Sequence record: PZ452578.1
DNA length: 64,000 nucleotides
Strand: one strand, 5' to 3'
Source: a phage
Part shown: positions 183 through 28,399 of the stretch, one piece after another
Numbering within the stretch: position 1 is the first letter of the stretch
Layout of the letters: each line of letters opens with the position of its first letter
Notes under the pieces: generated by a model
Seen by the model: only the letters and a program-made list of their open reading frames with translations
The model's database searches: none
Told to the model about the DNA's origin: nothing
Position numbers and translations under genes: made by a program

Positions 183-2879
183 TCAGCCAAACAGGAAGTC
201 TAACGAAGCTTTTTCTTCATAGTCCATACCAGCCGATTCACACATGCCTGCAAGCGGTTTAACAAACGATTTTTGGAACAAAGTTGAGTAGTCAATCCAA
301 GACAGTACGTCAGAACGAATTTCTTTTGGAAGTTCTGTGCCCGACGGCCAAGCAATGCACTTGTCACCAAATGGATTTCCTTCACGCAATGGAAGAACCA
401 TTACTTTATTTCCATCCAAAATTGGAGCTACACCCAGACCACTAACAGCTCGACGATAAGTTAGCACACCGCGAATATGGAACGGACATTTAAATCCTGG
501 CCAACCTTTATCATCATATTTCGCTATATCGTTCGCAGTTTTTACTTCAGCAATAACTTTATAGTCAAGTTGACGATATTCTTTCTCAAAGTTCTTATAA
601 TATTCTTGAACAGACTCTTCGCCTTCTTGAAGAATACGACGGATACTTTCTTCAAGAGCTTCTTGGACCGCTTTAGGCGTTGAACTCTGCTGAGTTTCCA
701 TACCCATGATTTTTAGATGCGGTTCAGCAAATCGCTTATCTTCCATATCATAAACGTTCAGAGCATAACGTTTTTTCGCTTTCCAAAATCCACCAACACC
801 CTTTGAACCAAGCGGAGGGCAAGAAATAGCTTCACGGTCCATATGCATCAGATGCTCGCGGTTATTCATATAATCACATAACTCACGATATGCAACATCA
901 ATCATAGGTTCCATCTTTTTCTTACCGAACTGATTCATGAATTCAACTAAATCGTTCTGCTCTTTGAATCGGTCAAGACCAACTTTTTCAATAACTTTAT
1001 CTACACAAACATATACCGAATCAGTATCACCTGCTGCGATGAAATCTTCGCCATTAGTTCCGCATACTTTATTCAGATATTCATTAATTTTACGAGCAAT
1101 CCACTGAATACCAACTTGGCCGAAAATTGTGATAGCAGTAGCATTTCGCAAATCATAGTAACGAAAATGAATATTACCAAGAGCACCGTAAAGACTGTTA
1201 ATAAGAATTTTACGGTTCAGCTGATTTGTGTTAGCAAGTGTAGCTGCTTTTTCACATTCTTCAATCAAACTATTGAGAACAGATTCGGTGTAATTCGATA
1301 GTTCATTTAAGAAATCATCACTGAACTTAACATATCGTTCAACTTCAGGTTTAGTTGAACAAGACCCTGCGCCTTTCATAATAATCTTTTTAATAGCTTC
1401 GGCATTCATTTCTTCAGCGAACATTTTCTTTTTCCAATCTTTACGCTGGAAAAATACTTTAGCGATTTCCTTTGGAATGATACCTTCTTGATGCTTATCA
1501 TACATCCATCCATTCGGAGAACAAGAATATTCATCACTCGGTTTAGGAGCTGTTCCTGCGATATATTCATGAATTGGATGAACTTTAAATTGTCCACGAA
1601 TAGTCTCAGGACTAATGTTAACCTGGCGAATAATACTCGGATACAGAGACGTCAAGTCAAAACTCATAATGTATCGACGAGCAATTGGCTTAGGTTCAAA
1701 TACAAATGCACCCGGAAAACTCTGTTTAACATGCGAACCTTGTTGAGGAATAACCTTATGTTCACCTTTCAATGAGTTAAAAATAATAGCATCCCAAGTT
1801 TTAATAGGACTCATTACACCAGAAAAAGGCATTTTAGCGTAATAAGACATACTTAAAACTAGATCGATAAACCCGCGAATTTTATCAATTGCTTGAACTG
1901 ATTCTACGTCAATGATGTTATAACTAATGTATCGTTGATGATTAGTCTCACGAAGTTTATTAATAGGACCATCATACGGTAATTTACCTTTTTTGGTTTC
2001 ATGCTGAGCAACTGATTCCAAAGAGAATGACGGCAAATTAGTAAATGCGAATTTCTTATACAAATCTAAATAATCAAGAATAGATACGCCATCAATAGAA
2101 TAAATTTCTTTGCTACCGTACATATTTTGAATTAGTTTAGATTTTACTCGACCAATTGGAGAGAAGCGTTTCATACTACGTTCACCGAGAACCATTTTAA
2201 CGCGATTCATGATATACGGAACGTCAAATCCCTCAATATTCCAACCAGTAAAAATAGCAGGTCGTTTCTGTTCCCAAAGATTGATATATTCCATGAGCAT
2301 ATCACGCTCATTATCGAATGGCATATAAATTACTCGGTCAAGAATTTCTTGAGGAACTTCATCACCACCTTCACAGTCAAGCTTAGCAGCTAACTTTGCA
2401 TCCCATTTTGATACTGAACCGTACATTGAATTCAAAAGGTCGAAAACATAAAAACGATCATCAATTGAATCGTAATGAGTGATAGCATCAATTTCATATT
2501 CAGCTTTCATTGGGTCAGGAAATTTATCACCAGTAACCTCAATGTCACAGTTAGCTACACGAACAAATTTTCGGTCATAAACAATTTCTGAACCGTATGT
2601 ATCACTGATATAAGCGAGTTTAAAATCGTTCATACCGAGAGCTTCGAGACCGATGTCTTCCATTCGTTTCATCCAATCTCGAGCATCTTTCATTGATGGA
2701 AATTTTTGAGGAGCGCAGTTTTTACCATAAATGTCTTTGTACTTTGACTCTTCCTTACAATGCCTAAACATAGTTGGAAGATATTCTACTTCACGAGTAC
2801 GTTCCTTTCCGTTTTCATCAATATAACGTTCAACAATGTTATTTCCGACTGTTTCAATAGAGATATAAAATTCTTTCAT
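183..2879 (-). CDS. 43: DNA polymerase gp43 (family B, 3'-5' exonuclease plus polymerase)
   Basis: 898-aa ORF starting MKEFYISIETVGNN; exo motif CDIEV, polymerase motifs SLYPSII and GDTDS; size and sequence as I recall for T4 gp43. Confidence 0.97.
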   Translation of the reverse strand: MKEFYISIETVGNNIVERYIDENGKERTREVEYLPTMFRHCKEESKYKDIYGKNCAPQKFPSMKDARDWMKRMEDIGLEALGMNDFKLAYISDTYGSEIVYDRKFVRVANCDIEVTGDKFPDPMKAEYEIDAITHYDSIDDRFYVFDLLNSMYGSVSKWDAKLAAKLDCEGGDEVPQEILDRVIYMPFDNERDMLMEYINLWEQKRPAIFTGWNIEGFDVPYIMNRVKMVLGERSMKRFSPIGRVKSKLIQNMYGSKEIYSIDGVSILDYLDLYKKFAFTNLPSFSLESVAQHETKKGKLPYDGPINKLRETNHQRYISYNIIDVESVQAIDKIRGFIDLVLSMSYYAKMPFSGVMSPIKTWDAIIFNSLKGEHKVIPQQGSHVKQSFPGAFVFEPKPIARRYIMSFDLTSLYPSIIRQVNISPETIRGQFKVHPIHEYIAGTAPKPSDEYSCSPNGWMYDKHQEGIIPKEIAKVFFQRKDWKKKMFAEEMNAEAIKKIIMKGAGSCSTKPEVERYVKFSDDFLNELSNYTESVLNSLIEECEKAATLANTNQLNRKILINSLYGALGNIHFRYYDLRNATAITIFGQVGIQWIARKINEYLNKVCGTNGEDFIAAGDTDSVYVCVDKVIEKVGLDRFKEQNDLVEFMNQFGKKKMEPMIDVAYRELCDYMNNREHLMHMDREAISCPPLGSKGVGGFWKAKKRYALNVYDMEDKRFAEPHLKIMGMETQQSSTPKAVQEALEESIRRILQEGEESVQEYYKNFEKEYRQLDYKVIAEVKTANDIAKYDDKGWPGFKCPFHIRGVLTYRRAVSGLGVAPILDGNKVMVLPLREGNPFGDKCIAWPSGTELPKEIRSDVLSWIDYSTLFQKSFVKPLAGMCESAGMDYEEKASLDFLFG

Positions 2880-2920
2880 AGATATTCCTTAGTTTATAGC
2901 CCGAGTTATTAGGCTCTTGA
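2880..2920 (-). promoter_or_regulatory. gene 43 5' leader with translational operator-like hairpin
   Basis: Minus-strand leader AAGAGCCUAAUAACUCGGGCUAUAAACUAAGGAAUAUCU-AUG: 5-bp stem AGCCU/GGGCU, 8-nt loop, then SD AAGGA. Matches the architecture of the T4 gp43 autogenous repression site. Confidence 0.5.
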
Positions 2921-2939
2921 TATATTATACTCCAAATAA

Positions 2940-2954
2940 GGGGCCGAAGCCCCT
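2940..2954 (-). terminator. UUCG-tetraloop hairpin (terminator or RNA-stability element)
   Basis: GGGGC-UUCG-GCCCC on the minus-strand transcript between the small ORF and the gene 43 leader. Confidence 0.5.
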
Positions 2955-2957
2955 TGC

Positions 2958-3179
2958 TTAAATTAGTACTATTTGCCGGGTGAAAATTGTCAATCCATCT
3001 GCATTAATTGACTTAACGACTGCAGTAAAATGTTTTTGTTCTGGGTGAACTAATTTTTGAAATTCTACCTGAAATTTTAATTGGAGGTTTTCTGGTAAAT
3101 CAAAAAGTGTTTCTGTTGCAGAAAGATTATATTTTTCTTTAAGAGACGCCATGTATTCTTGCGGAGTTATAGCAGTCAT
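2958..3179 (-). CDS. hypothetical small protein between regA and gene 43
   Basis: 73 aa from the ATG one nt after the regA stop (MTAITPQEY...); ends just before the hairpin at 2940-2954. No recognisable motif. Confidence 0.4.
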   Translation of the reverse strand: MTAITPQEYMASLKEKYNLSATETLFDLPENLQLKFQVEFQKLVHPEQKHFTAVVKSINADGLTIFTRQIVLI

Positions 3180-3180
3180 A

Positions 3181-3549
3181 TTAATTACCAATCGTATATT
3201 TAGGAACGAGTTTCCATTCATGTTTTTGTTTAAAAGAAATAACTCGGAAGTTATTAGTTAAATCTTTCATAAAAGTTCTTTGACCAGGAACGATTTCAAT
3301 CAGTCCCCAATCTTCTAACAGCCATGCAATCGAATCACGACGAACTTCATCTTCTTCTGTCATTTCAACTTGACGGCCATCCATACGAAGCATTTCTTTA
3401 AAATGAACGATATAGTATAGTCCTTTTTTCTGAAGAATATGACAGGACTGATACAGAACTTTATCTTTATTATTAGCAATTCCCATACGAGTCAAAGTTT
3501 CTTTTACTTTCAGAAAATCTTCAGGTTTTTTAAGAGTAATTTCAATCAT
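3181..3549 (-). CDS. regA: translational repressor RegA
   Basis: 122-aa ORF MIEITLKKPEDFLKVKETLTRMG...; size and position (between 62 and 43) as in T4. Confidence 0.9.
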   Translation of the reverse strand: MIEITLKKPEDFLKVKETLTRMGIANNKDKVLYQSCHILQKKGLYYIVHFKEMLRMDGRQVEMTEEDEVRRDSIAWLLEDWGLIEIVPGQRTFMKDLTNNFRVISFKQKHEWKLVPKYTIGN

Positions 3550-3550
3550 T

Positions 3551-4114
3551 TTACCATTCCAATGCTAGTTTTTTGAGTTGTTTCTGTTCTTTTACGTTCT
3601 TAGTCACTTCTTTCAAAAAATCATCCGTGACTAAACCTTTTAGTTCTTTTAATACTAAAGGAAGTTTTCCATTTTTAGTAAGAATTGATTTATAGTTAAT
3701 TGCATCATTTGTGTTAACTTGATACCGCTTAGCAAGTAACTTAATAATCAATACTTCGGTGGAATCTTCAACCAGTTTTGCCCATTTACCATATCTTTTA
3801 CCACGAGGAACTGCAGCCATTAGATAATTAAAATGAGCTTCATCACTTAAACCTGATCCAATTAAATTCATAGCATATACAGCTGGCATGCACTCTGGAA
3901 ATTGTGATAATGCATTTTCAACCATGAATTTTGAATAATCTTTTTGAGCAATAGAGCATTTAGTTTTATTATTAATAGCTCCAATTATTTCAAAAAACTC
4001 ATTTTCAGCTTTTTCTTTAAAAGAATCAGCAGCGGATTGGACAGCTGTCCAATCTTTTGAATACCAAGCAACTTGATGCTCGTTTAATTGAATATCATCT
4101 TCAAATAAGCTCAT
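3551..4114 (-). CDS. 62: clamp loader small subunit gp62
   Basis: 187 aa from the internal start [14 protein letters not shown]; directly downstream of gene 44. Confidence 0.9.
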
Positions 4115-4115
4115 A

Positions 4116-5075
4116 TCACTTCCACTGCATTTCACATGCTAACTGAATGAAAAGATAAGCTAGATGCAATTCAGTATTAGCTGCAATACCATGATACTGA
4201 TTATTTTCGCCGACAATTTCGTACATACGAATAATACTCTGTGGAGTTACACGTGAATAAATTTCTTCGGCAAGTTTACCCACGAACCACGAATAATCGG
4301 CTGCATATTTTGGTGCTAAAGCTCTGAGTTGTTTAACATCTTTATTTTTGAGAGACTCAAGAACATCATCAATAGCACCACGATCGTTAGTAACCAGTGA
4401 TAAAATACCAGCATCCAAAACACCTTTAGATGAATAACTATCGAGCTCGCCAATAGTTTTACGAAAATCAGGAAAATTCTTTTTAACCAAAGCTGCTACA
4501 ACTTTCATATCAGCTATAGCAATTCCTTCATGCTTACAGATTTCAGTCAACCGACGAATCATCTGCTTCATCATTTCAATTTTATCTTCATCGGTCGGTT
4601 GACCGAATGTAATAACTCGGCAGCGTGACTGAAGCGGTTTAATAATACCATCAATATTGTTAGCAGTAATAATAATACTACAGTTTGAACTATAAGCTTC
4701 CATAAAGGAACGAAGATGTCGCTGAGACTCTGCTAGCCCTGAACGGTCAAATTCATCAATAACGATTACTTTTTGACGACCATCAAATGAAGCTGCACTG
4801 GCAAAATTAGTCAAAGGACCACGAACGAAATCAATTTTACAATCTGATCCATTCACAAACATCATATCAGCATTTACATCATGACACAATGCTTTTGCTA
4901 CAGTTGTTTTACCTGTTCCTGGAGAAGGAGAATGAAGAATAATATGTGGAATCTTACCTTTACTTGTAATAGATTTAAAGGTTTCTTTATCAAAGGCGGG
5001 AAGAATACATTCATCGATAGTAGATGGACGATATTTCTGTTCAAGAATGTGTTCTTTTTCATTTACGGTAATCAT
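4116..5075 (-). CDS. 44: clamp loader ATPase gp44 (AAA+)
   Basis: 319 aa from MITVNEKEH; Walker [11 protein letters not shown], Walker [12 protein letters not shown] motif QSRC. Confidence 0.93.
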
Positions 5076-6510: not shown

Positions 6511-7227
6511 ATGAATTATAAACTAATTTATGAAAAGTTAATCTCTAATGCTAAATCTCGAAAACTTGATTGCTATACTGAATCTCATCACATTATACCG
6601 CGCTGTTTAAATGGAAGTGATGATGCTTCAAACTTAGTAGATTTAACACCAGAAGAGCACTATGTAGCTCATCAACTTTTAGTAAAAATTTATCCTTCTG
6701 AACCAAAATTAGTCTATGCTGCTAACATGATGACAGTTTCTACGAAATACGCTAAACGCAACAATAAAACTTTCGGTTGGATTCGTCGTAAACTCTGGGA
6801 AATAGAAAAGAACAAAGAATTCTCCCAGGAGACACGAAAGAAAATGTCTGATGCAGTAGCTAATAAAGCAAGACTAACTTGTCCTCATTGCGGTAAGTCT
6901 GGATTAAGCGGGAATATGAATCGTTGGCATTTTGATAACTGCCCAAATCACCCTAATCCTAAAGTTAGACCACCAATGTCTAAAGAACACAGAAATAATA
7001 TCTCAAACGGGCTTAAAGCAATCGTTCTTGAAGAAACATCCTGCGAATTCTGCGGAATGATAGGCAAGAAATGCGTTATCGCAGCGCATAGAAATTTCTG
7101 CAAGAAAAATCCAAATGGACGCAAGAAAACTGAAAAGACTGGTACTTGCGTCCATTGCGGTAAAGTTACCACTTTCGGAAATTTATCAAGGTGGCATAAT
7201 GATAACTGTAAATATAAACCTAGCTAA
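6511..7227 (+). CDS. HNH homing endonuclease-like protein with three zinc-finger-like repeats
   Basis: 238 aa; N-terminal HNH signature ESHHIIPRCLNGSDDASNLVDLTPEEHYVAHQ; three C-terminal repeats of CxxCG...(R)WHxDNC. Plus strand, antisense to the surrounding early genes. Confidence 0.8.
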   Translation: MNYKLIYEKLISNAKSRKLDCYTESHHIIPRCLNGSDDASNLVDLTPEEHYVAHQLLVKIYPSEPKLVYAANMMTVSTKYAKRNNKTFGWIRRKLWEIEKNKEFSQETRKKMSDAVANKARLTCPHCGKSGLSGNMNRWHFDNCPNHPNPKVRPPMSKEHRNNISNGLKAIVLEETSCEFCGMIGKKCVIAAHRNFCKKNPNGRKKTEKTGTCVHCGKVTTFGNLSRWHNDNCKYKPS

Positions 7228-8908: not shown

Positions 8909-9120
8909 AAAAGATTCCTTTTAATGTATCTTTTAGACCATTCTATCATATCATCATAATCTAAAAAGTATTCATCAAATTCAGCCATGCAAACAACACC
9001 TTGTGCTGTTTTTGATGTGATATAAATTATTCCAACATATCTAGAATCTTCTTCGGTGTAATCAATATTTGCTATGAATTCATCGTTAATGTCAAATGTC
9101 GAAAACTTCACAGTATGCAT
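8905..9120 (-). CDS. hypothetical protein (46.1 position)
   Basis: Small ORF; start set at an internal Met to limit overlap with the upstream ORF. Confidence 0.45.
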   Translation of the reverse strand: MHTVKFSTFDINDEFIANIDYTEEDSRYVGIIYITSKTAQGVVCMAEFDEYFLDYDDMIEWSKRYIKRNLL

Positions 9121-9355
9121 CCTTAATACAAGATACAGCCATATCTTGTAATGATTTAGGTGTGTCATTATCTAAAATGTTGAAGTTAAAAGATACGGCC
9201 CAATCAGTGCAGACCGTAACCTTTTTAATACAATTATCTTCAACCTCTAGTGGTTCAAACCAATATTCAATAATTTCTTTATGCCCAATATCATCTTTTA
9301 CTTCACATTCAAAATGCTGACTCATCATAACATTTTTAAATTCATCAAAAGTCAT
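9092..9355 (-). CDS. hypothetical protein (46.2 position)
   Basis: 87-aa ORF between 47 and 46. Confidence 0.5.
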   Translation of the reverse strand: MTFDEFKNVMMSQHFECEVKDDIGHKEIIEYWFEPLEVEDNCIKKVTVCTDWAVSFNFNILDNDTPKSLQDMAVSCIKDAYCEVFDI

Positions 9356-10371
9356 TGTGTTGCCTCTACATATAACTGATTTGCATATTGAATAAGTGCT
9401 TCGCGATCAGAATCAGTGATGTCTGGAATTGCATTAATGTATTCTTCCATCAATGTCTGAAGAGATTGAACTTCAACTTCTTCACTGTCATCTGACTCGA
9501 CAGAGTTATCAATCTTTGACACAACTCGTAATGAATGCACAACTTTTTCTAGTTCAGATTCGAACTTCGTTAGATTTTTGTCTACTTCAGTTACTATAAC
9601 ACGTACTGATAGATTTGTAAAATCTTTATAGTCAATTTTTCCTTTAAATGGATAATGAATTCTACGATGCCAGGTAGTATTGTTTGGAATAAATTCCATT
9701 CGTTCTGTTTCTGTATCAAACATCCAGAACCCGCGAGGGTCATTCTCGTCACCTGCTGTTAGTGTCCATGGTGTCCCAATATATCTGACGTTTGCAGCCT
9801 CAGAAATAGTATGGAAGTGACCAGACCACACTTCTTTATAAGTCTTAAGGAAATCAGGTTCAAGACCGTGAGATTTCATTCCTTTATAAAAATAAAATCC
9901 ATTCAGTTCCCAGTGACCAACACAAAAAGAAGCAGATGAAGTTTTGATGTGTTCAAGAATTTCACCAGTATTTTCTTCACACATCCAAGGAATTAAATCA
10001 ATCAAACATCCGTCAAAATCTACTGTAGTAGGCTTATCATATACTTTAACATTAGGATATTTAGCCAAAAGCTCAGTAGAAGCATTTGGATGCATTACAT
10101 TTTTATAGTGGAGATCGTGATTTCCTACAATAGTATGTAATGTGATTCCAGCGTCGTCAAGCATTTGAACTATTTCACGGGCAAACTCCATAGTTTTATG
10201 CGTGATCGCTTTTCGTACATCAAAAATATCACCATATTGAATCCATACAGTAATTCCATTTTTCTTAGAATATTCTATCGCTTGCTTAATTCCATCAATT
10301 TGAATACCGCGAATCCACTCATCATCGGCTTTAACGCCTAAATGCCAATCACCCAAGTTTAGTATTTTCAT
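9352..10371 (-). CDS. 47: recombination nuclease subunit gp47 (Mre11/SbcD-like phosphoesterase)
   Basis: 339 aa; metallophosphatase motifs LGDWHLG, GDIFD, GNHD, GHWE. Confidence 0.95.
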   Translation of the reverse strand: MKILNLGDWHLGVKADDEWIRGIQIDGIKQAIEYSKKNGITVWIQYGDIFDVRKAITHKTMEFAREIVQMLDDAGITLHTIVGNHDLHYKNVMHPNASTELLAKYPNVKVYDKPTTVDFDGCLIDLIPWMCEENTGEILEHIKTSSASFCVGHWELNGFYFYKGMKSHGLEPDFLKTYKEVWSGHFHTISEAANVRYIGTPWTLTAGDENDPRGFWMFDTETERMEFIPNNTTWHRRIHYPFKGKIDYKDFTNLSVRVIVTEVDKNLTKFESELEKVVHSLRVVSKIDNSVESDDSEEVEVQSLQTLMEEYINAIPDITDSDREALIQYANQLYVEATQ

Positions 10372-10972
10372 GGTGTCTTTTCCATCCTAATTTAGCTGCT
10401 TTTGAAACTAGTTCTTTAATTTTTCCTTTTGTCCATTCAGGACCAGGAGGTTCATGACATAACATTTGCTTAACTCCGTTATTATACCATTTTTTACCTT
10501 TATTATGTGATGAAGCTTTAAATTTATTTGACCTTCCTTTTACATAACCTTCTGGAATATACGGTAAAAAGGCAGATTTTCCTGTTAATGGGTCATGTGA
10601 ATGTATGTTTCCTTTACAATTATGAGAACCATATAATGGATGATTTTGTCCTTTAATATCTCTTCCAAATGAACCTTTTGGAGCAGCATATGACATATTA
10701 AAGAATAATGGATTTTTAACCGCATCATGCAAACGTTGATAATATAGCTCGCATTTAATAGCTTCTTCGCGCGTATCAAATTCATCTAAAATGCATGAAT
10801 CAAATAAATGTGGGTTATCTGAAAGTTCTTCATTATAAATTTTCTTATACTTTTTAGATAAAACTGATCCATGATATCCGGCTAAATGCCTATCTAAAGA
10901 TGTAGATCCAATATAAAAAGGAGGAAGTTTATCTCCACTATATATTGTTAAATAAGTTATATATTTTTTCAT
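10349..10972 (-). CDS. GIY-YIG homing endonuclease-like protein (Seg-like)
   Basis: 207 aa; N-terminal YLTIYSGDKLPPFYIGSTS...R (GIY-x9-YIG-R), C-terminal basic repeats with HPLYG/His motifs; its 3' end overlaps the gene 47 start. Confidence 0.65.
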   Translation of the reverse strand: MKKYITYLTIYSGDKLPPFYIGSTSLDRHLAGYHGSVLSKKYKKIYNEELSDNPHLFDSCILDEFDTREEAIKCELYYQRLHDAVKNPLFFNMSYAAPKGSFGRDIKGQNHPLYGSHNCKGNIHSHDPLTGKSAFLPYIPEGYVKGRSNKFKASSHNKGKKWYNNGVKQMLCHEPPGPEWTKGKIKELVSKAAKLGWKRHHENTKLG

Positions 10973-11133
10973 ATATCAAGAACCGTCATTGAAATGCAAA
11001 ATAAAATTATTGAAATAAATCCATCTGGAGTGCTAAAGAACCCAATCCAACATGCTCTAGTGAATAGATAAAATGCAAGAAAAAGTATCACATATCCAAG
11101 AAATATCATTATATCAAACTCCGTATAAAGCTA

Positions 11134-11150
11134 AAGGGCCGAAGCCCTTT
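11134..11150 (-). terminator. UUCG-tetraloop hairpin at the end of the alpha-gt gene
   Basis: AAGGGC-UUCG-GCCCUU on the minus-strand transcript. Confidence 0.45.
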
Positions 11151-12351
11151 ATTTTGTAATAATGTCAAACTGTTCTTTAAAGCAGAAGCTTGAATCTTGA
11201 TGCTGATACAAAAATTCATAAGCTTTTTCGCGTTCACGGTCATAAAGAGTTCGGTTAGATGACAGTTCTTTAATACGTTCAAATGTTGATTCCATGTCAT
11301 TTTCATCAAACCAAATGATACCGCTATCATGCGAAGTCAAAGGAGTATTATCAACACGGAATTTTAAATTTTCGCCCGTAGATTTCCAAAATACCGGAAT
11401 TGTTCCACATGCACCAAGCTCGAGATGAGTATATTCTAAAGAACGTTGTAGATATTTTTTGTCCAACTTACTCAGCTGATAACCAAAACCGGATTTACTC
11501 ATACGTTCAAGCATTTCGCTATTTACATAACGGTCAAGAATTTGCGTTGGCAAATTAGGAGCAATTTTAATTTGGTCTACTTGATGAAGACGATAATACT
11601 CGTATGGAATTCCTTTTTCTTTAATAGGAATGAACGCTGGAGAACGTTCCAGACCTTCCATAATAGTACTTAGTCCTGCAGGTTTAAGATATTTTTCATG
11701 AAAATCAAACATCTGATAAAAACCTTTCCATGTAGTCGTACGACCAATCCAACGGTTGATATTCATGTTAATTTCAGAAACATCTTTCCAGTAGGTTGAC
11801 CGAACCTTCGCAATATCCATAGGAGGCTGAAAGTTATATACGGTCGGTGCTTCTTCAATATCATCAAACAGAGAAACTGTTTCAGGATACCATTCTTTCA
11901 TCAGAACTTTATTAAAATCGCCATTATCAGAATGACTAAAAATAACATCAGCTCGACGAACAGTTTCTTCTAATCCCAAATTTCGACGCAAAGAAAGAGA
12001 AGAATGGTCATGTTGATAAACTACAACACGAACAGAAGGTTTAATATTATCAATAATTTTTTTATAGTTATTAATGGTGTCTTCTTCTACTGAAGTAGCA
12101 GGAACTGAATTGATAATTAGAATATCACAATCATTTACCAGCTTAAGTGTTTTATCGTATTCTTTTGCCAATAAAACTGGAATTGAAAATGACTTATAAT
12201 CATGCGCGCAATTACGAGTAAATGATTTATCTTTAGCATAAACCAAAATTACTTCATGACCATTTTTAATAAACCAATCACGTTGCTCGAGTGAGAATTT
12301 TGTTACACCACAACCTTCAAGACCTCGAGCCATAAAAATACATACTTTCAT
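11149..12351 (-). CDS. agt: DNA alpha-glucosyltransferase
   Basis: 400-aa ORF MKVCIFMARGLEGCGVTKF...; size and position (after 47) as in T-even phages. Confidence 0.88.
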   Translation of the reverse strand: MKVCIFMARGLEGCGVTKFSLEQRDWFIKNGHEVILVYAKDKSFTRNCAHDYKSFSIPVLLAKEYDKTLKLVNDCDILIINSVPATSVEEDTINNYKKIIDNIKPSVRVVVYQHDHSSLSLRRNLGLEETVRRADVIFSHSDNGDFNKVLMKEWYPETVSLFDDIEEAPTVYNFQPPMDIAKVRSTYWKDVSEINMNINRWIGRTTTWKGFYQMFDFHEKYLKPAGLSTIMEGLERSPAFIPIKEKGIPYEYYRLHQVDQIKIAPNLPTQILDRYVNSEMLERMSKSGFGYQLSKLDKKYLQRSLEYTHLELGACGTIPVFWKSTGENLKFRVDNTPLTSHDSGIIWFDENDMESTFERIKELSSNRTLYDREREKAYEFLYQHQDSSFCFKEQFDIITK

Positions 12352-12402
12352 TTAATATCCTCATTGTTTTGGTTTATTTTACCAAAAATTTATAAAGCAA
12401 TA

Positions 12403-12420
12403 TAGGAGCCGAAGCTCCTA
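12403..12420 (-). terminator. UUCG-tetraloop hairpin upstream of alpha-gt
   Basis: UAGGAGC-UUCG-GCUCCUA on the minus-strand transcript. Confidence 0.45.
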
Positions 12421-12591
12421 TCCGCATAATACACCGTATAGAGGCTCATTAGAGCTTCTAAATTTTATACGCTTATATGTTATAGTTCCTTCTGCTTTAG
12501 CTTTATCATGAGACTCTTTAAAGCGTCTCATCATTTCTACTTTAGAGGAACGAATTTTATTATCTACTTCAAAAGTCTGGATGTTCATCTT

Positions 12592-12798
12592 TCATAGTTG
12601 CCACCATTTTTTGACTTGATAAGAATCAACCCACACTTTCATATTAGGGTCTGCTCTTACAATAGGAGGATTAACTTCTTTAATTGAACTATCATGGTAT
12701 TCTTTTTCAGAAATTTTCACACAAAGATGACCATTCAAAGATTCAGTAAATCCTGCATTAATTTTAAGACGCTTGAATTTTACGTGTGTAAGCATCAA
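12592..12798 (-). CDS. hypothetical protein
   Basis: 68-aa ORF in operon orientation. Confidence 0.45.
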   Translation of the reverse strand: MMLTHVKFKRLKINAGFTESLNGHLCVKISEKEYHDSSIKEVNPPIVRADPNMKVWVDSYQVKKWWQL

Positions 12799-26714: not shown

Positions 26715-27434
26715 TTACGATTCTTCTAAATGTCTTTTCTGAAAAGTTGATACCATACTACGATAAGGTTCATTTGGATACCCGTGTTTTATAGCTTCCT
26801 TTGTAAATTTTCTCCATCCGTATTTAGTTTCTTTCCAAAGCTCGAATAATTCATCTTCATACTGCCATATAGTTAAATGAGAACGCTTTGCAGCTTTAAT
26901 TCCATTAATGTGCTTTTCTTTTACTGTAGGATTGCTTAGTGTCTTTTTAATAATATTACTAACTTTTCTAACAAAAGCTGGGTCCTTATATCGTTGTGAA
27001 GTTTTTATTGAAGTGTTTAATTTAGCTTCCGGCGTGGATGTGACCTCTTTCATCTTTTTCTTCATATGCTCTATATGATTAGGATTTTTCCATAAATTTA
27101 TAGAATGCTTTTTACATTTTATCCTAGTTTCATCTGCAACCTTTCCTCCTTCACCCCCATATGACAGGTTAACGCAGTTTTTTCCATATTTCAATTTACC
27201 TGCCATGATATATAATATTTCGGCTTGTACCATTTTATCATAATTATCAAAAACTTCTAAAACCGTTTTTGATAATATATGGTCATTTGACACTTTTACA
27301 CGTTCTATATAATTTCCACTACCAACATACGAATCATTGATGTTATTAGTTATATGTCGACCATAATAGTATTTCTTAATACCTGTCTTTAAATTTAATA
27401 TTTCAGTTTTATAGATAGTAAAATATTTTTTCAT
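26715..27434 (-). CDS. hypothetical protein, possible degenerate GIY-YIG-like nuclease module
   Basis: 239 aa; N-terminal FTIYKTEILNLKTGIKKYYYGRH resembles GIY-x-YIG-R; basic C-terminal half. Weak assignment. Confidence 0.4.
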   Translation of the reverse strand: MKKYFTIYKTEILNLKTGIKKYYYGRHITNNINDSYVGSGNYIERVKVSNDHILSKTVLEVFDNYDKMVQAEILYIMAGKLKYGKNCVNLSYGGEGGKVADETRIKCKKHSINLWKNPNHIEHMKKKMKEVTSTPEAKLNTSIKTSQRYKDPAFVRKVSNIIKKTLSNPTVKEKHINGIKAAKRSHLTIWQYEDELFELWKETKYGWRKFTKEAIKHGYPNEPYRSMVSTFQKRHLEES

Positions 27435-28399
27435 TTTAATAATACCGTTTCAGCGATTTCTTCCCAACCGTTTTTGTCGGTCATAATAAAGTCAGCAAGA
27501 TAAAGAGCAGTACGCAGTGAAACATTACGTAAACGATTAACATTGACTTTCATCCATGATAATGCTTTATAAGTTTCTTCATCAGAAAGACCGCGTTTTT
27601 GCATCATGTCAGTTGAAAGAATAACATCTTCAACCCTGACCATAATTTCTTCATTAGTGTGAACACCCAAATCTAAATAAACTGAGCGGGACACTAATGC
27701 TTGTAAATGTGGAGCAAGTTTAGTACCACGGTCTAATTCACGGTCAATGTCAACGTTTGTGATAAAAACAATTGTTCCTTTAAATTCAAACTCACGGTCA
27801 ATGCCTTTTTCTTCTAAGTAAGAAGATGCAGTGCTCCAGCAGACTTTACGGGTCTCTCCAGTGTCCAGAGCAGCTTTCAGAAGATTAAGAATGTCCATAT
27901 CAGAGAAAACATCCACATCATCAATCAAAAGGACAGAATTCTCTTCACGATTATTCCAAAGCTGTTCATAAAGACCGATACCAGAGATTTTACCATTAAT
28001 GCTTTTATACTCAATGTATCCAATATCATTTGCTTTATTTAAAGCTTTATCTAAAGAATACGTTTTACCAATGCCTGCCGCACCAGAGATAATTAATGAA
28101 CGAATGTTTCCGTTAATAATACCATTCGTCATCATTCCCATAACATTAAATCTTTTATTAATGCGGGTTTTCATATCTTCATATGATTCTTTAACTTCTT
28201 CAACTTTTACACCATCATATGAAATGTCTGATTTGTAAACCCAAACACCGCGACGCTTACCGTCAATTTCAACAAAAACTTTACCATCTCCTTGTGCATC
28301 TACCGGAGCATTATCAGGGAACCACTCACCTAAGAGTTCAAAAGTTCCAGAGATTTCTTTACCGAAGTAGATACCCTTATTGATAGTTACAGTTTTCAT
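27431..28399 (-). CDS. P-loop NTPase (AAA-like ATPase)
   Basis: 323 aa from MKTVTINKG; Walker A GAAGIGKT, Walker B VLLIDDVD. Confidence 0.7.
   Translation of the reverse strand: MKTVTINKGIYFGKEISGTFELLGEWFPDNAPVDAQGDGKVFVEIDGKRRGVWVYKSDISYDGVKVEEVKESYEDMKTRINKRFNVMGMMTNGIINGNIRSLIISGAAGIGKTYSLDKALNKANDIGYIEYKSINGKISGIGLYEQLWNNREENSVLLIDDVDVFSDMDILNLLKAALDTGETRKVCWSTASSYLEEKGIDREFEFKGTIVFITNVDIDRELDRGTKLAPHLQALVSRSVYLDLGVHTNEEIMVRVEDVILSTDMMQKRGLSDEETYKALSWMKVNVNRLRNVSLRTALYLADFIMTDKNGWEEIAETVLLK

Follow-up and report, generated by a model that had tools for sequence, protein, structure and literature searches.

The 64,000-nucleotide (nt) stretch of phage DNA analysed here (sequence record PZ452578.1; hereafter the window) belongs to a T4-like (Tequatrovirus) genome and carries genes 43, 46, 46.1, 46.2, 47, a-gt and 55 on its minus strand. 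Between genes 47.1 and 47 lies an open reading frame (ORF) of 207 amino acids (10349..10972, minus strand), a free-standing GIY-YIG (Seg-like) endonuclease gene. An earlier note on this DNA had proposed such a gene at these positions with no strand. The ORF begins with the ATG at 10972 and ends with the TGA at 10349-10351. Its start codon and the TGA stop of gene 47.1 overlap as ATGA, and at the other end its last seven codons and stop coincide, in a different frame, with the first 23 nt of gene 47 (10349..10371, minus strand). The 23-nt overlap with gene 47 given in the earlier note is exact by the gene 47 coordinates, and the stop TGA falls within gene 47 codons GGT GAT (Gly7-Asp8). The upstream neighbour, gene 47.1 (10969..11109, minus strand), encodes a small membrane protein of 46 amino acids (PHROG 6693, 1.5e-31; T4 annotation). 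The downstream neighbour and presumed target, gene 47 (9352..10371, minus strand), encodes an Mre11/SbcD-like recombination nuclease subunit (Pfam Metallophos; T4 annotation). The plus strand opposite the ORF holds only a 42-amino-acid ORF, and an Rfam search of positions 9000-12600 returned no intron or other RNA family. The endonuclease gene is free-standing, with its own ORF between 47.1 and 47, outside an intron or intein. Homologues in a database search reach E = 1e-137, and the ratio of nonsynonymous to synonymous polymorphism (pN/pS) among the copies, 0.03-0.11, indicates purifying selection; for these two reasons the ORF is not a chance one.

Gene 47.1 abuts gene 47 in phages T4, T2, T6 and RB14, in T4 with an ATGA overlap. 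Alignment of the window with T4 places 601 extra nt between the two genes, with the 7-nt direct repeat ATGAAAA on both sides. The endonuclease gene begins with the left copy of the repeat (10966..10972, minus strand), which also overlaps the TGA of 47.1, and gene 47 begins with the right copy (10365..10371, minus strand). The 247 nt upstream of the insert are identical to T4. Comparative alignment of related phages, which the earlier note had suggested as a check, reveals presence or absence of the gene with exact boundaries at the 47.1|47 junction. As a result of this placement, the ATG start codon and upstream context of gene 47 in T4 now serve the endonuclease gene, and gene 47 itself lies behind the endonuclease 3' end (...AGGATGGAAAAGACACC ATG).

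Insert DNA of 96-99.7% identity occurs in 69 phage-collection records and the uninterrupted T4-type junction in 465, including T2, T6, RB9, RB14 and RB27; carriers make up about 13% of the Tequatrovirus records. A scan of IMG/VR with the conserved 5' sequence of gene 47 retrieved six loci, all empty and T4-type. Carriers belong to many species of the International Committee on Taxonomy of Viruses (ICTV), including teqhad, gizh, fps90, ec04, lutter, ecomg28, zeezee23, knp5 and teqdroes. At least one carrier, AndreasVesalius (locus-tag prefix bas42), comes from an E. coli K-12 isolate collection, the BASEL collection. Decayed copies also exist: KNP1 and KNP5 share a 223-nt internal deletion, and ESh16 and ESh36, whose records are flagged unverified, have a frameshift. 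Some GenBank records already name the gene a (putative) homing endonuclease, and in GiZh (NC_054903) it is unannotated. Literature searches turned up neither an account of an endonuclease at 47.1|47 nor a paper on this gene.

Taken alone, the protein sequence gives two reasons to doubt a GIY-YIG assignment. Its match to Pfam GIY-YIG (PF01541; E = 8e-4, 20.1 bits) lies below the gathering score of 22.6 bits, and neither a PDB sequence search with the protein nor a profile search with the family alignment found a GIY-YIG structure. A search of NCBIfam with the protein returned no match. The family provides more. The database search found 169 relatives, from which an alignment of 39 members was built, and Pfam GIY-YIG matches 12 of these 39 at E ≤ 0.01 (best E = 2.4e-5). 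An AlphaFold2 (AF2) model computed from the family alignment has a predicted local distance difference test score (pLDDT) above 90 for residues 1-90. Its elements follow the order strand 4-11, strand 19-25, helix 26-30, helix 40-52, strand 57-65 and helix 68-81, which is the GIY-YIG core, namely a three-stranded sheet with a β1-β2 hairpin followed by helices (β-β-α-α-β-α). Foldseek comparison with the PDB returned the I-TevI catalytic domain as the top three matches (probability 0.99-1.0). Among the viral models of BFVD there were 66 matches at E ≤ 1e-3, and those with names are GIY-YIG, Seg-like or group I intron endonucleases. The family-level Pfam matches and the fold settle the GIY-YIG identity, the evidence from the single sequence being weak.

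The databases say otherwise. PHROGs assigns the protein to phrog_10820 (7.6e-94), a family labelled HNH endonuclease, and RefSeq attaches the same label to many carrier records (for example NC_054916, NC_054901 and NC_054933). An HNH endonuclease is nevertheless highly improbable: the labels are all that speaks for it, no Pfam HNH match was obtained at E ≤ 1, every fold match is GIY-YIG, and the GIY, YIG, Glu and Asn residues are conserved. Given the family and structure evidence for GIY-YIG, the HNH label is wrong. The view of the earlier note that this is a free-standing, Seg-like GIY-YIG gene is thereby upheld by the fold, the conserved Glu and Asn, the family-level Pfam matches and the clean presence/absence polymorphism at the junction.

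The N-terminal GIY-YIG catalytic domain comprises residues 1-100 (10673..10972, minus strand), with β1 at 4-11, β2 at 19-25 and a helix at 68-81. The motif string from which the gene had originally been recognized, TIYSGDKLPPFYIGSTSLDR, occupies residues 9-28, and eight residues, not the nine given before, separate TIY from YIG. Strand 1 holds Y7 and Y11 and strand 2 holds Y20-I21-G22, each in 38 of the 39 relatives. In the model, Y7 or Y11 may be the catalytic 'GIY' Tyr, and both are candidates. Residues Y33, G35, S39, A71, E75 and N92 are invariant in all 39 relatives; the domain includes the Seg-type motif G-Y33-x-G35-S, and E75 lies within helix 68-81. In a MAFFT alignment the E75 and N92 columns are invariant with SegA, SegF, I-TevII and I-TevI, and correspond to E75 and N90 of I-TevI, whose sequence was checked against 1MK0/1LN0; this residue mapping comes from the alignment together with the secondary-structure register, not from structural superposition. 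The same alignment paired YVG of I-TevI with the Seg G-Y-x-G-S motif, a pairing that was rejected as a misalignment because in the model G-Y-H-G-S belongs to a loop and FYIG to strand 2. When the family profile was aligned with the single I-TevI sequence by hhalign, the C-terminal NUMOD-like stretch alone was matched. R28 falls in the helix that directly follows the YIG strand, at the place of R27 in I-TevI. No loss of the catalytic Arg or Glu, the fault that the earlier note had proposed to look for, is seen in this protein on alignment. Across the 39 relatives the R28 position is Lys in 22, Arg in nine, Asn in five and Gln, Ser and Glu in one each, and the eight non-basic cases are a point against the homing endonuclease reading. 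An Arg after YIG is also absent from T4 SegA in the alignment. The Arg is thus a weak point of the family as a whole.

The basic C-terminal region, residues 105-207 (10352..10660, minus strand), is presumed to be a DNA-binding module. The basic repeats that had been noted there are real: the region has an isoelectric point (pI) of 9.9, with 19 Lys and Arg plus eight His in 103 residues, and contains two SHN-x-KG repeats at residues 116 and 155, the motifs GQNHPLYG (GxNHPLYG) and WYNNG, and a terminal helix. The AF2 model of this region has predicted β-hairpins and a helix at 186-195, at moderate pLDDT. Pfam gave no domain match to the region in this protein, and detected NUMOD3 in that of 20 of the 39 relatives. 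The end of the protein follows a family pattern, W-K/E-R-x-x-E-N, whose codons are dual-coded with the GGA upstream of gene 47 and the gene 47 start ATG AAA AT. Judging from the sequences, this double duty with the gene 47 start region probably explains the conservation of the tail.

The gene is an ordinary further example of the mobile endonuclease genes common in T4-type genomes, yet none of the 15 T4 endonuclease genes lies at 47.1|47. The best non-self match of a hidden Markov model (HMM) of the family N-terminal domain is T4 SegA (E = 0.004 among 633 ORFs from the window and T4 1-50 kb). YxG, ten residues and G-Y-x-G-S are collinear in the two (YYG...GYMGSG in SegA), their Glu and Asn align, and SegF is similar. 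However, the domains share about 26% identity, the C-terminal halves are unrelated, SegA is situated between uvsX and beta-gt, and BLAST of the endonuclease against T4 SegA and SegF found no similarity. Like SegF and SegG, the gene is a promoter-less, free-standing GIY-YIG gene between conserved genes, encoding an N-terminal catalytic and a C-terminal, here presumed, DNA-binding half; in both cases the distribution among T-even relatives is patchy, flanking sequence of the essential neighbour travels with the gene and signals of the downstream gene are embedded in it (PMC2988022). Unlike SegF and SegG, this ORF ends within gene 47 and lacks a separate stop codon. I-TevI (PDB 1LN0/1MK0) differs in being intron-encoded and in having a Zn-finger linker and a helix-turn-helix (HTH) domain; the helix after YIG is about nine residues shorter in the present protein, and no link between them emerged from sequence or profile searches. 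A sister clade found at other loci in T4-like phages (for example the 'GIY-YIG homing endonuclease' of vB_YenM_TG1, and proteins of IME281, HX01 and Bp7) is 55-70% identical over the N-terminal ~115 residues, whereas its C-terminal halves, with NUMOD3 repeats, and its genomic positions are different. These differences would fit a single catalytic cartridge combined with various DNA-binding modules in the family.

The position is occupied in other genera as well. Relatives with 50-69% protein identity are located directly upstream of gene 47, overlapping its start, in three further genera. The overlap is 17 nt in Klebsiella phage KP185 (Jiaodavirus) and 23 nt in Aeromonas phage L9-6 (Biquartavirus). 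In IME08 (Dhakavirus, NC_014260) an intact, unannotated homologue stands in place of 47.1 (2498..3124 of locus L016), and the annotated gp47 (3021..4124) has a false 84-nt N-terminal extension into the endonuclease gene, the real start being at locus position 3102. The upstream neighbour varies by genus and gene 47 alone is constant. The insert is rare in these genera, with eight of 101 records around IME08 and four of 162 around KP185, so that Dhakavirus and Jiaodavirus likewise show presence or absence of the gene with exact boundaries among close relatives. Relative to insert-free WG01, the IME08 gene 47 differs at nt 9, 12, 15 and 18, the wobble positions of codons 3-6, and at nt 10, a silent first-position change in a Leu codon; relative to insert-free IME341 it differs at nt 9, 12, 15 and 18 only, and the following 24 nt are identical. 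On a larger scale, IME08 shares about 83% identity with these insert-free relatives over the first ~270 nt of gene 47 and 95-96% beyond. In KP185 the first 285 nt are 81% identical to insert-free KpV477 and the next 415 nt 99.5%. Both divergent tracts stop just past the GNHD codons. Such footprints are expected of an endonuclease gene that arrives with flanking donor DNA.

A much shorter difference marks gene 47 in the window. Four silent substitutions in codons 3-6 (10354..10363, minus strand; ATA CTA AAC TTG versus ATT TTA AAT TTA in T4) fall at gene 47 nt 9, 10, 15 and 18, and the next differences from T4 are at nt 45 and then nt 124. At the background divergence of 3.1%, at least four differences in a pre-specified 10-nt stretch have P of about 2e-4. 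Gene 47 was read for this patch in 25 sequences from the ~534 records. The patch is present in 14/14 insert-bearing sequences and missing from 7/7 T4-type empty sites, with RB14 having one of the four changes. In the 25 sequences, every other variable site between nt 45 and 420 of gene 47 is shuffled with respect to presence of the insert. Compared with an artificial junction composed of the occupied site plus T4-type sequence, 68 of the 69 occupied records show four or more nt differences.

The link between patch and insert has exceptions in both directions. ERS-1 (L021, PP337211) is the sole occupied record with T4-type codons 3-6 beside the insert; this record is flagged UNVERIFIED_ORG and has many indels, and the exception may be an assembly artefact. 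Conversely, about nine records have an empty site with the patch, and the four of these that were read (SHFML-26, Ec_YwIITB1, BCPEco_001 and UGKSEcP1) represent at least three different gene 47 backgrounds. Owing to these records and ERS-1, the patch is neither proof of immunity nor necessarily required. In addition, since the patch abuts the insert, linkage of the two is expected from adjacency alone. The empty sites with the patch could be precise losses, for example across the two ATGAAAA repeats or when a heteroduplex loop was repaired, and could equally be resistant alleles. A second protective site was considered at gene 47 nt 219, where C tracked intact genes in the first 15 sequences, and was rejected when GiZh and REP1, both with intact genes, proved to have T219 in the set of 25. 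C at this position (window 10219 region) is found in 11 of 14 insert-bearing and none of 11 insert-free sequences, and is residual linkage only, not a requirement. Separately, gene 47 nt 58-75 and 225-281 form a divergent block in L005, L009 and L033 (UGKSEcP1) regardless of insert status, which shows frequent mosaic recombination inside gene 47.

Taken together, the ORF is most likely an intact, uncharacterised gene for a free-standing GIY-YIG homing endonuclease, comparable in kind to T4 segA-G, inserted exactly at 47.1|47. By analogy with such genes, the enzyme would target the 5' part of gene 47, and cleavage and homing are proposed as follows. During co-infection with an empty T4-type relative, the basic C-terminal half of the enzyme would bind DNA in the 5' part of gene 47, and the N-terminal GIY-YIG domain would make a double-strand break. 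Recombination-dependent repair would then copy the endonuclease gene, together with neighbouring markers, from the carrier genome. The carrier itself would be protected by the splitting of the junction by the insert, by the four silent changes in codons 3-6, or by both. Spread by double-strand-break repair in mixed infections has been described for SegF, SegG, SegE and SegB (PMC2988022; PMC2330249). As for the position of the cut, the tight patch of the Tequatroviruses points to the junction itself, while the ~270-nt tracts of the other genera and the cutting of Seg enzymes at a distance would allow a site further into gene 47.

The element may be the same and the patch have another meaning, namely that of donor sequence brought in with the gene and of no protective value, with the crossover in the first conserved stretch, which codes for GDWHLG (GGTGATTGGCA). 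The real cleavage site may then lie upstream, or at a distance of up to about 260-285 nt inside gene 47, close to the GNHD motif. This is a serious contender, if somewhat short of an even chance. The first 23 nt of gene 47 are physically part of the endonuclease ORF; insert-free Dhakavirus IME341 has the Tequatrovirus patch ATGAAAATACTAAAC unchanged at its gene 47 start; the divergent tracts of KP185 and IME08 extend about 260-285 nt into gene 47; free-standing T4 endonucleases cut away from their insertion sites (PMC2988022); and the direction of the wobble changes differs among genera. On the other hand, the Tequatroviruses have no insert-linked site beyond nt 18, which argues against obligatory co-conversion from a distant cut, and the patch without insert on several gene 47 backgrounds would fit selection for resistance.

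Two further explanations dispense with homing. The gene could have been domesticated as a GIY-YIG nuclease or regulator for the benefit of the phage, excluding competitors, aiding recombination or amplification, or controlling gene 47 translation. The strong purifying selection agrees with this, as does the supply of the translation initiation region of the important gene 47 by the endonuclease 3' end, and SegB is reported to promote immune evasion through segmental amplification (PMC13096335). Domestication is nonetheless unlikely, given the small share of Tequatrovirus records that carry the gene, the precise empty sites in the others, the decayed copies and the scarcity of relatives in other genera. 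Rarity, empty sites and decay are marks of a selfish element, and a benefit to the phage would not replace homing. Still less likely, though not by much, is a catalytically dead relic, in which a GIY-YIG fold that no longer cuts is kept because its removal would disturb gene 47 expression. It would accommodate the variable Arg position, the sub-threshold Pfam score and the retention through embedded signals that is known for seg and mob genes (PMC2988022). However, the low pN/pS across the whole ORF and the invariant Tyr, Glu and Asn are unexpected for a relic, this copy has R28, and the precise empty sites with the patch show that absence of the gene can be harmless. Both explanations fit the combination of rarity, decayed copies and strong purifying selection less well than homing does.

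A wider version of the homing endonuclease reading can be put forward tentatively, and is rather doubtful: the gene would belong to a lineage that has the first codons of gene 47 as its special target in at least four genera of T4-like phages and takes over the ribosome-binding context of gene 47, and the silent patch would be a cleavage-resistance allele. If so, the tail, dual-coded with the Shine-Dalgarno-like GGA and the gene 47 start, would provide built-in retention, in that imprecise loss would cripple gene 47. The target would be an odd one, the gene for an Mre11-like nuclease that resects the very breaks that homing needs, and a resistance allele circulating without the insert would be a visible stage of the homing-endonuclease life cycle. 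Irrespective of this, the catalogue of T4 mobile elements gains an unnamed, uncharacterised Seg-type endonuclease and, with 47.1|47, a new insertion slot, and identification of the gene corrects the widespread RefSeq HNH mislabel and the mis-annotation of IME08 gp47. The occupied, empty T4-type and empty-with-patch alleles provide naturally occurring material for testing target-site resistance and co-conversion, and such genes shape marker survival in mixed infections and phage cocktails.

With regard to expression, a promoter scan near the endonuclease ORF showed no excess (nine sites versus 11.2 expected), and no T4 late-promoter motif was found there. The closest plausible promoter is a MotA-box-like middle promoter upstream of a-gt (12377..12402, minus strand), located by pattern match only. 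Based on the sequence context, the endonuclease gene is probably a promoter-less cassette transcribed from this a-gt middle promoter, with its translation coupled to 47.1, and a transcript with 47.1, the endonuclease gene and 47 likely starts at the MotA-box-like promoter. T4 seg and mob genes are likewise promoter-less cassettes on existing transcripts and carry signals of the downstream gene (PMC2988022). A conserved GC-rich hairpin between a-gt and 47.1 (11132..11151) aligns with an identical one in T4, and the annotations of G28, GiZh and fPS-90 list it as a putative terminator.

The window contains a second endonuclease gene nearby, as the earlier note had stated. The HNH-type free-standing gene between 45.2 and 46 (6511..7227, plus strand) is a real ORF that matches PHROG 655 'homing endonuclease' (8.6e-69) and, weakly, Pfam HNH. 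It is convergent with gene 46, with an 8-nt overlap at the gene 46 3' end, and occurs in 60 of 505 related records but is absent from T4 and Killian. The two endonuclease genes differ in their nearest relatives: that of the Seg-like gene is Killian (99.7% identical), which has no HNH gene, and that of the HNH gene is RB33 (99.5%), which is not among the listed carriers of the Seg-like gene. The proposal that the region is a hotspot for homing elements stands in part. Two genes within 4.5 kb of one genome prove little, but at the population level Tequatroviruses have at least four endonuclease slots from 45.2 to a-gt.2, at 45.2|46, 46|46.1, 47|47.1 and a-gt|a-gt.2. In SHFML-26 (L011 3011..), G28 (L014 3861..) and PhiZZ23 (L020 3861..) an 855-nt gene annotated as 'homing endonuclease' lies directly downstream of 46.1, the position at which both T4 and the window have the start of gene 46. 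T4 has the HNH gene mobB between a-gt and a-gt.2 (T4 L003 7828..8730), and the corresponding part of the window (12352..12600) is without it, so that the regional endonuclease complement differs from that of T4 in three slots. Elsewhere in the window, another Seg-like ORF (~26718..27449, minus strand) has a SegA-type signature, KKYYYGRHITNNINDSYVGSGNY, and weakly matches the HMM of the family N-terminal domain (E = 0.012).

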